From Deltaproteobacteria bacterium (GTDB lineage Bacteria; Myxococcota; UBA727; VGSZ01): a stretch of DNA of 24,464 bases. Positions 1-19,260 of this stretch are shown piece by piece. The translations under genes were made by a program, and so were the position numbers. The DNA lies in the NCBI GenBank assembly GCA_043744135.1, contig JAYTVG010000281.1, positions 1 through 24,464 of the forward strand, given 5' to 3'. Under the pieces are notes generated by a model. The model was not told the DNA's origin. It was given only the letters and a program-made list of their open reading frames with translations, and did no database searches. Every line of letters begins with the position of its first letter. The stretch's first letter is position 1.

Positions 1-723
1 TACGTGGGCGCCGGCACCATCGAGATGTTGGTCGATGCGCACAAGAATTTTTACTTCATGGAGATGAACACGCGGCTGCAGGTCGAACATCCCGTCACCG
101 AGATGATCACCGGGTTTGATCTTGTGGAGGCACAGATCTGCGTGGCGCGGGGTGAGAAGCTGCCTTGGGGTGAAGCGCCAGAGCATCCACGGGGTTGGGC
201 GATGGAAGCGCGTGTGTGCGCTGAGGACGCGGCCGCCAACTTCGTGCCCGTCCCTGGCCGCATCAACCACATGCGTGCCCCCGGGGGGCCAAACGTGCGC
301 ACCGACACCGGTATCTACCCGGGCTTTTCCATCACCACCGACTACGACCCGATGATCGCCAAGGTGATCGCGTGGGGCAAAGACCGCAACGTCGCGCGCA
401 AACGTTTGGATCGCGCGCTGTCGGAGTTCACGCTCAAGGGCACCACCACCAACACGATGTTTTTGCGACAGCTGCTCGACTTCGAGGAGTTCGCGTCGGG
501 CACTTACGACACCGGCGTGATCGAACGCTTCCAAAAATCCTCCAGCGGCTGGGTCACGGAGGAACACAAGATCGTGGCGATGTTGGCGGCGGCGTTTTTT
601 AAATACGAAGAAGAGCAAGACGCGCACTCACGCGTGATCGCGGGTCGCGGCACCGGCCGCACCGGCAAATACGTCAACCCATGGAAGCGGGGCCTGCCGC
701 CACGCACCGTGAACCGTTGGTAA
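1..723 (+). CDS. accC: Biotin carboxylase subunit of an acetyl/propionyl/acyl-CoA carboxylase, C-terminal part (5' truncated by window edge)
   Basis: Frame open from base 1. Contains hallmark FMEMNTRLQVEHPVTE, EARVCAED and YDPMIAKVIAWG motifs. No fused biotinyl domain. Substrate specificity cannot be determined. Confidence 0.93.
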   Translation, partial: YVGAGTIEMLVDAHKNFYFMEMNTRLQVEHPVTEMITGFDLVEAQICVARGEKLPWGEAPEHPRGWAMEARVCAEDAAANFVPVPGRINHMRAPGGPNVRTDTGIYPGFSITTDYDPMIAKVIAWGKDRNVARKRLDRALSEFTLKGTTTNTMFLRQLLDFEEFASGTYDTGVIERFQKSSSGWVTEEHKIVAMLAAAFFKYEEEQDAHSRVIAGRGTGRTGKYVNPWKRGLPPRTVNRW

Positions 724-725
724 CG

Positions 726-1187
726 ATGCGCGCGTTTGCAACAGTGGCCGTGCTGATGACGCTGCTGGTGCACGCCGGCTGCTACAAACACGTCATCACG
801 GTGGGCACCGGTGGCGATACGCTCAAGCCGACACCCGATGCGGAGTCGTCGACGTATTTTTTCATTGATGGTGCCATTGGTCAAAGCAGCGTGAAGCTCG
901 CGACGGTTTGTAAAGACACGCCAAACGCCACGGTGGTGGTCGAGCGGACGCTGCTTGACGGCTTCATCGGCACCTGTTTGTGCGCGCAGTGGATGATGCC
1001 ATCAACGACCAAGGTGTATTGCGGCGCGAAACGGTCCGAGGCGCGCGCACCGCAGGTGGTGGTGCCGGCACCGGTGACCCCGCCGACGACACCCGTGACG
1101 ATACTGCCGGCGCCCGCCACCGCTGTGGTCCCCCCGGCAACTGCGCCGGCAACTGCGCCGGCAGCTGTGGCTCCGCCGTCGTTTTGA
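726..1187 (+). CDS. Bor/Iss-like lipoprotein with Pro/Ala/Thr-rich C-terminal tail
   Basis: ATG at 726, 2 nt after the accC stop. Signal peptide ending VHAG-C. Mature part (FFIDGAIGQSSVKLATVC...RTLLDGFIG...PSTTKVYC) follows the recalled lambda Bor pattern (FFxxGxGQ...C...TxxxGxxG...PxxxxVYC). Confidence 0.7.
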   Translation: MRAFATVAVLMTLLVHAGCYKHVITVGTGGDTLKPTPDAESSTYFFIDGAIGQSSVKLATVCKDTPNATVVVERTLLDGFIGTCLCAQWMMPSTTKVYCGAKRSEARAPQVVVPAPVTPPTTPVTILPAPATAVVPPATAPATAPAAVAPPSF

Positions 1188-5553: not shown

Positions 5554-6693
5554 ATGGACATCGCCGCGTTGGCACTATCAAGCGTGTCGTTGGTGTTTGC
5601 GGTCGGGTTTTGGGCGGTTGCGCGTCGAGAATTGCGCGCGCTCGTGCCGGTCGCAGCGCAGCAGCTCAAAAGCGCGCTGCACGTCGTCATCCCGGCGCGA
5701 AACGAACCGGATATCGCGGTGTGTTTGCGCGCGGTGCTGGCCGACCCCGCAGCGTCGTTGCGTGTCGTCGTCGTCGACGATCGCTCAAGCGACGACACGG
5801 CCGCGCGCGCACAGGCCGTGTGCGACCAGGACAGCCGTGCGCGCGTCGTGCGTTTAACAACCGAGCCCGCCGACGGTGTCTTCGGCAAGCCGCGCGCCCT
5901 GGACGCTGGCGTGCAGGCACTGGACGCTGATGCGCAGCTGTTGTGTTTTTTGGACGCTGACGTGGTGCTCGCGCCCGGTGCCCTCGGTGGCTTGGTGCAC
6001 GCCATGGCCGCGCAGGGCGCAGGTGCGGTGTCTGGCGTCGTGCGCTTGGTGACACGTGGGCTCGTCGAACAGCTGCTGGTACCGACCTTCGCTAGCGTGG
6101 TGATGTCGCGCATGATGCCAACCGCGGTGCACGATGCGACGCATGCCGCGGCGTTTTTAAATGGCCAGCTCATCGTGACCTCACGCGCGGCGCTCGAGGG
6201 CATCGGCGGCTGGCGCGCTATGTCGGGCACGGTGCTGGAAGATGTGGCGCTCGCGCGCAAGCTCAAAGCGCACGGCACGACGTTGCGGCTGTGTGACGTG
6301 CGCGCGCTTGCAGCGACCCGCATGTATACCTCGCTCGCCGACATCGTGGCGGGCTTCAAAAAAAACGCCGTCGCGCTGCTCGGGCCGTGGGCAGGCGTGA
6401 CGGGCGTGTCGGCGCTGGCGTTATCGCTAAACGCGTGGCTGGCAGCAGCGCTTGCCGTGCACGCGATGCGCGACGGCCGCATCACGCTGGCGGTGGTGAC
6501 GCTGGCGTCGGTCGCACTGACGTGTGCCTGCGGCGTGTCGGTGCGTCACCAAGCGCGCGTCGCACGCTGGCCTGCGCTGGTGTTGCCCGTGGCGTACGTC
6601 GTGGTGGCGTGGGTGTTGCTCAGCGCAAGCCTCGGCCACGCCCGCAAGCGTCCGCTGCTTTGGAAAGGCCGCAGCTACCCAAGGGGTCAGTAG
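5554..6693 (+). CDS. Glycosyltransferase family 2, membrane-anchored (CrtQ/HpnB-like lipid or carotenoid glycosyltransferase)
   Basis: VVIPARNE, VVVVDDRSSDDT, GKPRAL, CFLDADV, NGQ, EDVALAR, RMY motifs; N- and C-terminal TM helices; ends WKGRSY. Confidence 0.88.
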   Translation: MDIAALALSSVSLVFAVGFWAVARRELRALVPVAAQQLKSALHVVIPARNEPDIAVCLRAVLADPAASLRVVVVDDRSSDDTAARAQAVCDQDSRARVVRLTTEPADGVFGKPRALDAGVQALDADAQLLCFLDADVVLAPGALGGLVHAMAAQGAGAVSGVVRLVTRGLVEQLLVPTFASVVMSRMMPTAVHDATHAAAFLNGQLIVTSRAALEGIGGWRAMSGTVLEDVALARKLKAHGTTLRLCDVRALAATRMYTSLADIVAGFKKNAVALLGPWAGVTGVSALALSLNAWLAAALAVHAMRDGRITLAVVTLASVALTCACGVSVRHQARVARWPALVLPVAYVVVAWVLLSASLGHARKRPLLWKGRSYPRGQ

Positions 6694-6723
6694 GCGCTAA
6701 AATCGCCGGTGCTTTGCAGCCAT

Positions 6724-6754
6724 AAAAAAACGGGGACGCTGCGAAGCGCCCCCG
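6724..6754 (-). terminator. Rho-independent terminator of the SctF-like gene
   Basis: On the minus strand: ACGGGGGCGCTTCGCAGCGTCCCCG stem-loop followed by TTTTTTT, about 24 nt after the stop at 6778. Confidence 0.85.
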
Positions 6755-6777
6755 TCGTTGGCCGCTTGAATGTCGCG

Positions 6778-7332
6778 CTAGCGGACGTTTGAAATTGAGC
6801 TCTTGGCGGTATCGTGCTTGGTCTTCATAACGTTTGACACGGTGGTGAATGAGCGGTTTTCCATCTGCATCTTTTCCTGCAGCTGCAAGTATTGCAGGTT
6901 GAAGCTCGCCATCATCTCCTGCATGTCCTTGGTCTGATTCAGCATGTCTTGCTGGCTACTGCCCGAAGACTTGGTGCCCGTGTTGCTCGATAGACCGGGG
7001 CCACCCAGCGGAATCCCGTCAGCACCAGACGCGCCTGACGCGCCGCCTGCACCACCACCGCCGCCAACTCCGTAGCCGCCGCTGCTGCCGCCGCCGCCGC
7101 CGCCCAATGAACCTGCAGCGCCGGTGACCGCCGCCGACACCACTGCTGCGCCGGGAACAAACGGCGCCGCGACGCCAATGGCGGCGCCCGCGGTGCCCGC
7201 ACCAGCGGACACGCCGTTTCGGACCTGCGCGCCGAAATCGGTGCGCGGGGATTGGCGCACCGTGGTGCTACCGCTGTCGAGCTGGATCCCACCGCGGGTC
7301 GATCCGTTTCCATCAATGTTTGTGACTGCCAT
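6778..7332 (-). CDS. Putative T3SS needle-subunit (SctF/PrgI)-like protein, 184 aa, with hydrophobic hairpin and Gly-rich N-terminal extension
   Basis: GGAG RBS before ATG 7332. The last 34 aa (LQEKMQMENRSFTTVSNVMKTKHDTAKSSISNVR) align without gaps to the recalled PrgI C-terminal helix (YQSKLSEYNLYRNAQSNTVKVFKDIDAAIIQNFR), with 10 identities including the terminal I-x-N-x-R. Confidence 0.68.
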   Translation of the reverse strand: MAVTNIDGNGSTRGGIQLDSGSTTVRQSPRTDFGAQVRNGVSAGAGTAGAAIGVAAPFVPGAAVVSAAVTGAAGSLGGGGGGSSGGYGVGGGGGAGGASGASGADGIPLGGPGLSSNTGTKSSGSSQQDMLNQTKDMQEMMASFNLQYLQLQEKMQMENRSFTTVSNVMKTKHDTAKSSISNVR

Positions 7333-7444
7333 GGCGAACTCCGTTTCGTTGTGGCGCATGCTGCGTGGCAGGCGCCGAATTTGCTAAAAAGTTCGAGTGT
7401 TAAAAATCCCGGTAGGGGCGCTCAACAGCTCTTTTCAAGTTCGA

Positions 7445-7473
7445 TTATCGCTGGACGGTAGCGGGCGTTGCGC
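7445..7473 (-). promoter_or_regulatory. Bipartite promoter-like motif GCGCAACGC-N13-GCGATAA upstream of the SctF-like gene
   Basis: Plus strand reads TTATCGC (7445-7451), a 13-nt spacer, then GCGTTGCGC (7465-7473). Identical boxes and spacing occur at 18672-18700. Confidence 0.7.
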
Positions 7474-7498
7474 TTGCGGCGTGCGGGATCGCGTCAGA

Positions 7499-7837
7499 TC
7501 AGCCGGTTGACCCAGCGCCCATGCCGGCTTTGGTCGCCAAAAGGTGCGACACCAGCGCCTGCGTCTTGTCGTAGGCTTTGAGCGCGCGTTGTGCAGCCGC
7601 TTTGTCTTTCGGGGATTTGGCGGATTTGGCCAACTGCGCGAGCTGGCTCGAGCGGGCCTTAAGTCCCGCTAACGCCGCTTCGCCGTTTTGCTCGACGACG
7701 GCTTCGATGGCCGGAAACCCTGCCGAGGCCGCAGGTGCAGCAGGGGCGGCCACTTTCGGCCGGCCATCGACGGTCTTTTTGACCGCGTCTTGGATCTTAA
7801 ACGCCTTCATGGCGTCGTTGCGTTTGCCGTCAGGCAT
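7499..7837 (-). CDS. Small basic helical protein, possible YscE/PscE-like needle chaperone
   Basis: GGAG RBS before ATG 7837; overlaps the upstream stop by 8 nt. C-terminal QRALKAYDKTQALVSHL resembles the recalled YscE segment QRESKALESAIAIIHYV. Lies directly upstream of the SctF-like gene. Confidence 0.5.
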   Translation of the reverse strand: MPDGKRNDAMKAFKIQDAVKKTVDGRPKVAAPAAPAASAGFPAIEAVVEQNGEAALAGLKARSSQLAQLAKSAKSPKDKAAAQRALKAYDKTQALVSHLLATKAGMGAGSTG

Positions 7838-8834
7838 GACTGCTCCAAAACCGTGAGAAGCCACCGTACGACAGACCCATGCCAGCGGCCAGCGTCACAT
7901 ACAAGCCAAAGCGGATCTGCAGCTGGCTTTCGACGGTGCGCTGAAGCCCGTACACCACGAGGAGGTAGGCACACAGCACAGTCGAAGCAGCACCGATCAG
8001 CAAGTGCCACAGCGAGGTGCGCCGCGACGCTTGTAGCTGTTCGCGCTGCGACGAGCGCCCCACGCTGCTATCGAGCACGCGGCGCGCCCGCCCCACCAGC
8101 AGCGCCACCGCGGCGCACGCCAGCGCAGCATGCAGCACGCCCCCCGAAACCAGCCCGATTTGAAACGGGTGGGCGCGGTCCGAGATCCACGGCAGCAGCG
8201 TGCCCACCAAGGTGAGCAGCGCCGACAGGAACGTGACCTTGTCCGACGGTTGCCACACCCGCCAGCCCTGGCGCAGATCGCGCAGCAGCTCTTCGACTTC
8301 GCCCGCGACTGCGTCGAGCAGGCTGGGGGCTGCAGGGCTTGGTGCGTGCGGCACCGTGTGGTCGGGTGCTGGGCGGCGCGCGCGACGGCGTTCATCGCCC
8401 GAGGGGTCGTCGCCGATCGGGCGCGGGCGGGCGCGGCGCTCGCGATCGCCCGACGGGTCATCGCCGAGCGGTCGGTTGCGCAAGCGCCGTTCCCCCGACG
8501 GGTCGTCGCCGATGGGGCGGCGCTTGCGATCATCCCCCGAGGGGTCGTCGCCGATGGGGCGGCGCTTGCGGTCGTCGCCGGGCTCGTCAGGACGACGTCG
8601 TGCTTCGCGCTGCGCCGACAGCTCACGCGACATCGCTTCGGATTTTTGTTGGAGCTCACTTTGATGTCGTTGCGCTTGGGCATCGCGCGTCACACCGCTC
8701 GTGCCACGCTCGGGTGGACGCTCGGGCGAACGCTCGGGTGGACGCTCGGGTGGACGCTCGGATGGACGCTCCGGTGGACGCTCCGGTGGACGCTGTGAAG
8801 CGCGGTCCGGGCCTTTTTGCTGCGGCGGAGGCAT
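7830..8834 (-). CDS. Membrane protein with repeat-rich charged N-terminus and about 4 C-terminal TM helices
   Basis: MPPPQQK start. PPER-type repeats and RRPIGDDPSG-type repeats, then TM segments (VTFLSALLTLVGTLLPW; GLVSGGVLHAALACAAVALLVG; LWHLLIGAASTVLCAYLLVVYG; RFGLYVTLAAGMGLSYGG). Confidence 0.75.
   Translation of the reverse strand: MPPPQQKGPDRASQRPPERPPERPSERPPERPPERSPERPPERGTSGVTRDAQAQRHQSELQQKSEAMSRELSAQREARRRPDEPGDDRKRRPIGDDPSGDDRKRRPIGDDPSGERRLRNRPLGDDPSGDRERRARPRPIGDDPSGDERRRARRPAPDHTVPHAPSPAAPSLLDAVAGEVEELLRDLRQGWRVWQPSDKVTFLSALLTLVGTLLPWISDRAHPFQIGLVSGGVLHAALACAAVALLVGRARRVLDSSVGRSSQREQLQASRRTSLWHLLIGAASTVLCAYLLVVYGLQRTVESQLQIRFGLYVTLAAGMGLSYGGFSRFWSSHA
8395..8575 (-). repeat. 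Four copies of the coding repeat unit RP(I/L)GDDPSG(D/E)
   Basis: Plus strand repeats of GG(G)TC(G/A)TCGCCGA with (C/T)GGG(G/C)CG flanks; protein reads RPIGDDPSGD, RPIGDDPSGE, RPLGDDPSGD, RPIGDDPSGD. Confidence 0.85.
8706..8794 (-). repeat. 12-bp tandem coding repeat (PPER/PSER/SPER, about 7 units)
   Basis: Units of GCTC(G/C)GGTGGAC and variants on the plus strand. Confidence 0.85.
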
Positions 8835-18671: not shown

Positions 18672-18700
18672 GCGCAACGCGCCGCGCCAGCCTGCGATAA
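18672..18700 (+). promoter_or_regulatory. Bipartite promoter-like motif GCGCAACGC-N13-GCGATAA upstream of the SctI-like gene
   Basis: GCGCAACGC 18672-18680, 13-nt spacer, GCGATAA 18694-18700; ends 35 nt before the ATG. Same as 7445-7473 on the minus strand. Confidence 0.7.
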
Positions 18701-18735: not shown

Positions 18736-19260
18736 ATGGTAGATCCCGTCTCAGGTGGCATCGGCAAAGCCAGCCAACAAATGATGCAAGAGCTCCAAAA
18801 GGAGATGCAAAAAGGCCAAGACCAAGTCGGTAAGCCGGGCTTTAACGACACGATGGCGCAGCAAGTCAACCAGACCCAAGGCGTGCAGCACACGCAGGGG
18901 ATCCAGCCTGTACAAGAAGCGCAAAAGGTCAACGAGGCCACCAAAGCTGCCGACGTTCTGCGCACCGCACAAAGCCAAAGCGTGCAAGGCGTCAACCCGG
19001 ACACCGGCGTCAAGCCGATCGAAAAAAAGGCCGAGTCCAAAGAGGCGGGCCTCAAGGCCGTGCTCAACCAGGTGGTCGACGGACAAAACAAGCTCGACGA
19101 CATCATCAAGATGGCCACCAGCGGCAAGGTGTACGGCAACCAACAGCTGCTGGCGATTCAAGCCTCGGTCTACAAGTTCAGCCAAGAGCTCGATTTGACG
19201 TCGAAGGTGGTGGAAAAAGCCACCAGCGGCGTCAAGCAGACCATGCAGACCCAGGTTTAA
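18736..19260 (+). CDS. Putative T3SS inner-rod protein (SctI/YscI/HrpB2-like)
   Basis: AGGAG RBS. Gln-rich, likely disordered N-terminus. C-terminal QQLLAIQASVYKFSQELDLTSKVVEKATSGVKQTMQTQV matches the recalled SctI/HrpB2 C-terminal pattern (L..Q.......ELx.K...K....V..L). Confidence 0.75.
   Translation: MVDPVSGGIGKASQQMMQELQKEMQKGQDQVGKPGFNDTMAQQVNQTQGVQHTQGIQPVQEAQKVNEATKAADVLRTAQSQSVQGVNPDTGVKPIEKKAESKEAGLKAVLNQVVDGQNKLDDIIKMATSGKVYGNQQLLAIQASVYKFSQELDLTSKVVEKATSGVKQTMQTQV

Follow-up and report, generated by a model that had tools for sequence, protein, structure and literature searches.

Among non-flagellar type III secretion systems (T3SSs), those of myxobacteria branch most deeply. They have been described without the needle subunit SctF, the secretin, the tip and the translocon, and Abby and Rocha (2012) remarked of the SctF missing from the Myxo systems that it 'should have been found' (PMC3459982). 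For Myxococcus xanthus, a 2023 review of the MXAN_2434-2464 cluster lists SctD, J, I, Q, RSTUV, N and L together with LcrH-like chaperones and reports 'no homologues to a T3SS needle' (PMC10433427), while Herrou et al. (2025) still describe the system as needleless and propose Tad-pilus tips as a needle substitute (PMC12075869). The predation system of this organism is called a 'needleless' T3SS* (PMC10433427, PMC12075869). Here, we analyzed a 24,464-nucleotide stretch of DNA from a Deltaproteobacteria bacterium of the phylum Myxococcota (contig JAYTVG010000281.1, assembly GCA_043744135.1; hereafter the window) and focused on P0001, a 184-residue protein translated from the minus-strand open reading frame (ORF) at 6778-7332. 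We propose, with about an even chance of being right, that P0001 is a divergent, elongated member of the SctF superfamily which belongs to the non-flagellar T3SS of Myxococcota and would form a rod- or needle-like polymer.

The likeness to needle subunits resides in the C-terminal tail. Reference sequences of YscF, MxiH, AscF, EprI and EscF were fetched via PF09392 from pCD1, pCP301, pAsa5 and the E. coli Sakai chromosome. The final 34 residues of P0001 align to MxiH and EprI without gaps and end to end, with 9 of 34 positions identical to each, among them S-N-x-x-K-x-x-x-D and the terminal I-x-N-x-R (shuffle p = 5e-5 and 1.5e-4, respectively; no better offset within P0001). EscF shares 7 of the 34 residues (p = 0.0075), and the same ungapped comparison puts YscF and AscF at chance level. 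An ungapped match of this kind had originally been noted against PrgI, which we take to share the same C-terminal motif, with 10 identities; it was borne out with MxiH and EprI in its place. Profile comparison with hhalign of tail and family alignments against the five needle subunits gave P values of 0.0022 (tail alignment) and 0.001 (broad family alignment) over 35-36 columns, reaching the last residue of both profiles. The observed score of 25.8 compares with 11.9 +/- 2.6 for 150 column-shuffled SctF templates (maximum 21.4, none reaching the observed value) and with 8.9 for the reversed template. Convergence or chance among generic amphipathic helices, with no functional link to a T3SS, would be compatible with the hhalign probability of only 13-21%, with the YscF and AscF results and with the finding that no SctF chain among the PDB sequences was matched at E <= 10, either by the single sequence or by the family profiles. 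We nevertheless consider it very unlikely given the shuffled controls, an alignment that runs to the last residue in both families and the independent support from synteny, co-occurrence and a shared promoter motif presented below.

Standard needle models miss this protein, as had been suspected: PF09392 (gathering threshold 29.4 bits) found no match in the entire genome of P0001 even at E <= 10. Relatives bridge the gap. In G226, a genome from the Corallococcus genus, the homolog matches PF09392 with E = 8.7e-4 and 19.9 bits over residues 126-186 and the family profile with E = 1e-31, and in nine genomes of this genus (about 8.5-10.8 Mb) the sole PF09392 match at E <= 0.01 falls within the long needle-like gene. 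The PF09392 cut-off is passed only by more distant long relatives (L086, L087, L088-L090). One of these, the 246-residue protein L087, scores 33.5 bits and is at the same time recognized by the family profile (E = 3e-6), making it an intermediate, and proteins of 144-149 residues in the same order as the P0001 organism, which share the N-terminal motif described below, likewise lie above the cut-off. Neighbors in a protein language-model search include T3SS_needle_F, HrpA and HrpE clusters. Based on the profile comparison, the intermediates and the language-model neighbors, the tail is, as far as sequence can tell, a divergent SctF-type helix. We did not file P0001 as a member of PF09392, because it stays below the model threshold and does not have the helix-PxxP-helix hairpin of about 70-90 residues.

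More than 220 full-length homologs of P0001 were found at 60-80% identity, all of them unnamed and without a Pfam domain, and no description of this long needle-like family was found in the literature. The family profile detects a member in 247 of the 301 Myxococcota genomes in the sample (214 of the 255 high-quality ones), mostly as a single copy, with two copies in Myxococcaceae-type genomes. Presence was compared with that of the export-gate protein SctV (FHIPEP) in a table drawn up by hand, in which related genomes are not independent: both occur in 244 genomes, FHIPEP alone in 24, the family alone in 3 and neither in 30. An unpublished genome, G195, is counted in these tallies only. The 24 FHIPEP-only genomes include carriers of the 144-149-residue type, and the three family-only genomes are 82-93% complete. 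Among Myxococcota, presence of the family goes with presence of the T3SS export gate.

Gene order in relatives points in the same direction. G226 is a complete 9.4-Mb genome from the genus that contains Corallococcus aberystwythensis and carries two family genes, one at each of its T3SS clusters. In cluster 2, the homolog directly precedes the genes for an SctI-like protein, SctJ, a FliG-like protein and SctQ, followed further on by SctU and SctV. In cluster 1, the order is small ORF, homolog, tetratricopeptide repeat (TPR) protein, 131-residue ORF, sigma-70-family factor, SctI-like protein, SctJ, FliG_C protein and SctL, placing three genes between the homolog and the SctI-like gene. The homologs hold the sctF position in the G226 clusters. 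This supports the part of the original prediction that such a gene could account for needleless calls, in that homologs occupy the needle-gene position of clusters called needleless, with the filament role itself a candidate one. By analogy, the succession of small ORF, homolog and TPR gene would mirror yscE-yscF-yscG. A conserved 121-residue ORF also lies directly upstream of the P0001 gene and has the pattern S[VA]GFPxIE ... AAKKAxxAY ... YLLxTK. Its assignment as YscE-like by sequence was rejected, since hhalign showed no similarity to YscE/AscE (P = 0.5), so its likeness to YscE is positional only. The TPR gene that directly follows the homolog in G226 has no counterpart adjacent to the P0001 gene. 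In two metagenome-assembled genomes (MAGs) of Myxococcota (L039, L046), a variant of the tail that is otherwise widespread across phyla sits within the sigma-factor/SctI-like module, an arrangement which hints at a recent common origin of the widespread and the T3SS-linked tails.

In the genome of P0001 itself (4.87-Mb assembly, 1119 contigs, 86% complete), the module is dispersed. SctV, SctR, SctJ and SctU are encoded on other contigs, far from the P0001 gene; to our knowledge, Myxococcota have no flagella, and these genes can therefore be assigned to a non-flagellar T3SS. The T3SS genes seem to be scattered in this lineage. The SctV gene (contigs C449 and C457) is not in a T3SS cluster and is flanked by genes for a TPR protein, an AI-2E transporter and a GT4-like protein; it also adjoins type IV pilus genes, namely pilB/pilT-like ATPases, pilC and a PilS/PilR-like two-component pair. 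Within the window, the module includes an SctI-like, inner-rod-like gene 11 kb from the P0001 gene. Its PF17001 match is weak and yet the best genome-wide; it is 71-74% identical to a gene that close relatives carry 4 kb downstream of their needle-like gene, and relatives of its product match PF17001 with E = 3.5e-5 and 2.8e-4. Both genes share a promoter-like motif, GCAACGC-N13-GCGATAA, of which exactly two copies exist in the 4.87-Mb assembly, one upstream of each gene and each correctly oriented. Two additional relaxed-motif matches (C38, C714) look like chance matches within coding sequence and were dropped. Upstream of P0001 orthologs the motif is kept in the form GCGCAAC-N15/16-GCGATAA. 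The second element resembles GCCGATAA, the -10 box of sigma-28 promoters, in keeping with the sigma factor encoded in the module of relatives.

P0001 contains 38 glycines (21%) and no cysteine or tryptophan, and four regions can be distinguished. The polar N-terminus, rich in Ser, Thr, Gly and Asn, may act as a T3SS export signal. It is followed by a conserved block with invariant alignment columns at R26, D32, F33, R38, G40 and A55-G61; its family-wide motifs, R-Q-[ST]-P-[RK]-T-[DE]-F-G and AAPFVPGxxVVSAA, are common to all Myxococcota subtypes, and the 19-residue Kyte-Doolittle mean peaks at 1.9 at residue 51. This hydrophobic block may have a function of its own. The spacer varies in both length and sequence, being short in the 140-residue homologs of Anaeromyxobacter and long in the 222-residue L019 type. 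The C-terminal helix is nearly invariant. AlphaFold2 (AF2) predicts one long helix at residues 126-183 plus low-confidence N-terminal helices. The predicted local distance difference test (pLDDT) score was 50 with 24 aligned sequences and 56 with 86, and only the C-terminal helix is moderately confident, with pLDDT values of up to 86 across the final 35 residues. A four-copy complex prediction of residues 118-184 scored 0.01, controls not having been run, and weighs neither for nor against self-assembly. As originally noted, no PxxP directly precedes the helix, and only the conserved IPxGGPGL lies about 20 residues upstream. The roughly 120 additional N-terminal residues had been described as an appendage displayed on the filament surface. 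The residues are there, and since they comprise a conserved block followed by a variable spacer they do not make a free appendage. By analogy, conserved ends with a variable middle may instead reflect the pattern of flagellin-type axial proteins.

The composition and the module context also allow P0001 to be thought of as a T3SS substrate that is not a filament subunit, with its tail docking to the rod or gate and the protein acting as a harpin- or translocator-like membrane-active factor or as a secreted sigma regulator. Like harpins, P0001 is rich in Gly and free of Cys, a composition that alone is no proof of membership; the invariant AAPFVPG block is hydrophobic, the relatives' module also encodes a TPR protein and a sigma-70-family factor, the -10 element of the promoter motif is sigma-28-like, and the M. 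xanthus cluster is reported to include LcrH-type chaperones (PMC10433427). Pfam, however, gave no match to harpin, translocator or FlgM families, the SctF-like helix is the most constrained part of the protein, and the gene occupies the sctF and not the translocator position. Overall, we consider this substrate role unlikely. The more specific idea of P0001 as a FlgM-like anti-sigma factor was set aside for lack of a FlgM match; the 131-residue ORF between the TPR and sigma genes of G226 is a likelier anti-sigma candidate by position only, itself without a FlgM match.

If P0001 is an SctF-type subunit, the following course of events would be consistent with the data. The gene would be transcribed from its own alternative-sigma promoter, with a -10 element like that of the sigma-28 type and common in this genome only to the SctI-like gene, and a good ribosome-binding site and strong terminator would ensure that the protein is produced in quantity. 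Small partners, namely the product of the conserved upstream ORF and, in relatives, the adjacent TPR protein, might hold it unpolymerised until its export, with the N-terminus leading, by way of the SctRSTUV gate encoded in this genome, of which SctV, SctR and SctU were identified. The nearly invariant C-terminal helix could then stack onto the SctI-like rod protein and extend it into a rod- or needle-like polymer. In such a polymer, the conserved N-terminal block would pack on the helix while the variable Gly-rich spacer would point outward, as does the variable middle of flagellin. What stands of the originally proposed divergent filament subunit is thus an SctF-related tail that SctF models miss and the sctF position in relatives; a surface appendage, like polymerisation, would be a further step.

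Several findings weigh against P0001 as a needle-type subunit. Searches of its sequence and of the family profiles against Pfam, NCBIfam and PDB sequences returned low-complexity or noise matches only, the hhalign probability is low, and so is the confidence of the AF2 monomers. The protein has twice the length of SctF and does not have the PxxP hairpin turn. The gene is surrounded by housekeeping genes in the window. The invariant hydrophobic block (Kyte-Doolittle mean 1.9) could be a membrane anchor and not an outer helix. Further, genomes of Corallococcus and of a second Myxococcaceae genus contain SctF-sized genes of 71-72 residues near their T3SS genes. These show weak PF09392 matches and could encode the true needle or a second axial protein; they, too, are at odds with the 'needleless' label. 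In Corallococcus aberystwythensis, three identical tandem SctF-sized copies are located about 17 kb from the long needle-like gene (L107:598-1710; G167:C78). Another SctF-sized gene, L114 (G232:C101:276732-276935), lies 1.4 kb from SctV.

Lastly, the tail occurs far beyond organisms with a T3SS. In a cross-phylum scan using one genome per species, tails with 57-79% identity came from Chitinophagaceae, Acidobacteriota, Alpha-, Beta- and Gammaproteobacteria, Verrucomicrobia, Chloroflexi, Actinomycetes, Gemmatimonadota and others, and in every case they formed the C-terminal end of a protein that was otherwise unrelated. A tail profile matches 2497 clusters at 50% identity, again always at the protein C-terminus, and the P0001 tail is a member. 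Across L033-L085 (e.g. L050:9710-10183 and L057:9569-10177), the roughly 50-residue tail is almost invariant and reads MQETQMSFNLQYLQLQSQMQxENRSYTAISNIMKTKHDTVKNSISNxR. About 70 of the 150 best-scoring representatives start with a Sec-like signal peptide according to a simple hydrophobicity heuristic, and 31 of 40 carrier genomes outside Myxococcota have no FHIPEP, a count to which MAG incompleteness applies. There is no Pfam model for the cross-phylum family, and no description of it was found in the literature. A mobile-element origin was considered and dropped, as no phage record and only one plasmid (Spirosoma) matched. No conserved neighbors of tail genes were found outside Myxococcota, and an apparent neighbor cluster proved to be the tail itself read in the antisense frame. 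A 332-residue protein encoded on a contig from a Nitrososphaerota (archaeal) bin (L047:3095-4090) has a signal-peptide-like start and the bacterial tail, 79% identical over 52 residues, which is a case of bin contamination or cross-domain transfer.

A nearly unchanged tail in genomes without a T3SS means that the tail can work without one, which speaks against a function as needle only and keeps alive an explanation independent of the T3SS. P0001 would then be a bitopic or Sec-routed envelope protein with residues 50-72 as signal-anchor and a periplasmic tail doing whatever job is common to the T3SS-less carriers. That job might be self-association or the binding of a universal envelope partner, for example. 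The cross-phylum conservation, the signal-peptide-like starts and the gate-less carriers all fit an envelope protein, as do the Arg residues that precede the hydrophobic block with none following it and an OmpA-family gene after the module in L019-type loci. Such a protein is harder to reconcile with the tracking of FHIPEP within Myxococcota, with homologs upstream of SctI-like and SctJ genes in both G226 clusters and with a promoter motif common only to the SctI-like gene; moreover, the Ala/Gly/Pro-rich block is poor as a transmembrane helix. We regard the envelope explanation as improbable, on a par with the non-filament T3SS substrate. Less probable still is a scenario that combines both contexts, in which the needle-type tail is an autonomous assembly module that escaped from the T3SS, building the missing rod or needle of the 'needleless' T3SS* in Myxococcota and T3SS-independent envelope filaments or decoys elsewhere. 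If true, the nearly identical tails borne by Sec-exported proteins in soil and freshwater bacteria that have no T3SS (Chitinophagaceae, Acidobacteriota, Proteobacteria and others) would either make such envelope filaments or serve as periplasmic decoy subunits, which would cap or poison the filament of a predator during attack.

Set beside known systems, P0001 combines features of several. It shares with SctF proteins (MxiH, PrgI, EprI, YscF, EscF; PF09392) the motif at its very end, the location of homologs upstream of sctI-like and sctJ genes and the co-occurrence with the T3SS gate. Unlike SctF, it has 184 instead of about 70-90 residues, no PxxP turn, a hydrophobic conserved N-terminal block and a 50-residue Gly-rich spacer, stays below every SctF model threshold and is encoded remote from other T3SS genes in this genome. 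In length it is similar to EspA (about 190 residues), and in its conserved termini and variable middle the family is similar to flagellin-type axial proteins, where both ends build the filament core and the variable middle is exposed; in contrast to EspA and flagellin, P0001 has no Pfam match to either, and its middle is low-complexity Gly/Ser/Ala sequence and not a folded domain. The Hrp-pilus subunits HrpA and HrpE are likewise divergent, longer than needle subunits and missed by standard needle models. P0001 itself had no match to the HrpA model PF09589 in the Pfam search, and its relatives gave weak sub-threshold matches (E = 0.021-0.93). Whereas HrpA and HrpE come from plant pathogens, the hosts here are Myxococcota, whose T3SSs are reported without a secretin (PMC3459982). 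Finally, P0001 resembles the cross-phylum family through its tail, and differs from most members outside Myxococcota, whose N-terminal parts are unrelated and frequently include a Sec-like signal peptide, and whose genomes encode no T3SS gate.

The P0001 gene is real and looks well expressed. Its true start codon is the ATG at 7332 and not the one at 7359, because homologs share this Met and a GGAG lies 6 nt upstream. The flanking signals agree with the original prediction of an own ribosome-binding site and a strong terminator, the latter located 3' of the stop codon and running from 6756 to 6729. The predicted promoter holds as a motif conserved upstream of orthologs and not as a sigma-70 consensus promoter, none of which was found on scanning 6650-7950. 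The surrounding genes encode a biotin carboxylase, a MatE transporter, a TPR protein, a GT2 glycosyltransferase and dnaX, together with a SpoU methylase, a radical-SAM enzyme and a thioredoxin-like protein, and no T3SS core genes were found in the 24-kb window. A Bor-family lipoprotein-like ORF at 681-1187 (+) (PF06291, E = 5.5e-7) is situated between the biotin carboxylase gene and a biotinyl-carrier-domain gene. Coordinates of the features discussed are compiled in the table.

Table. Features of the P0001 locus and of the SctI-like gene, in window coordinates
Feature	Position	Strand	Basis
Coding sequence of the long needle-like protein P0001, 184 residues, stop included	6778..7332	-	Translation and homologs
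Polar N-terminus, residues 1-25, Ser/Thr/Gly/Asn-rich	7258..7332	-	Low pLDDT, no secondary structure in AF2
Conserved N-terminal block, residues 26-75, with RQSPRTDFG motif and hydrophobic AAPFVPGAAVVSAA segment	7108..7257	-	Invariant alignment columns
Gly/Ser/Ala-rich spacer, residues 76-125, with conserved IPxGGPGL	6958..7107	-	Alignments
C-terminal helix, residues 126-184, nearly invariant (FNLQYLQLQ...SNVMKTKHDTAKSSISNVR), SctF-helix-like	6781..6957	-	AF2, alignments, hhalign
Ribosome-binding site GGAG, 6 nt from ATG	7339..7342	-	Read off the sequence
Promoter-like motif GCGCAAC-N15-GCGATAA upstream of the P0001 gene	7445..7473	-	Conserved upstream of orthologs
Intrinsic terminator, 12-bp stem (8 GC pairs), 4-nt loop, T-run	6729..6756	-	Terminator scan
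Conserved small upstream ORF, 121 residues, predicted two-helix C-terminal part	7499..7864	-	Homologs precede the needle-like gene at 25 other loci
Promoter-like motif, second copy, preceding the SctI-like gene	18672..18700	+	Motif scan
SctI-like (inner-rod-like) gene	18736..19260	+	PF17001, E = 0.026 (weak), genome-wide best

In conclusion, with regard to how substrates exit the M. xanthus cell via the T3SS*, a near-universal family that tracks the export gate, carries an SctF-type tail and, in relatives, occupies the sctF position offers a concrete candidate gene in a tractable, non-pathogenic model. The P0001 family is a candidate for the 'missing' needle or rod extension of these systems, which would entail filament formation and T3SS-dependent export, and it is relevant to the claim of an SctF loss in the ancestral system. 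At the same time, the analysis exposes a large undescribed protein family whose almost invariant 50-residue tail extends across phyla without a T3SS.

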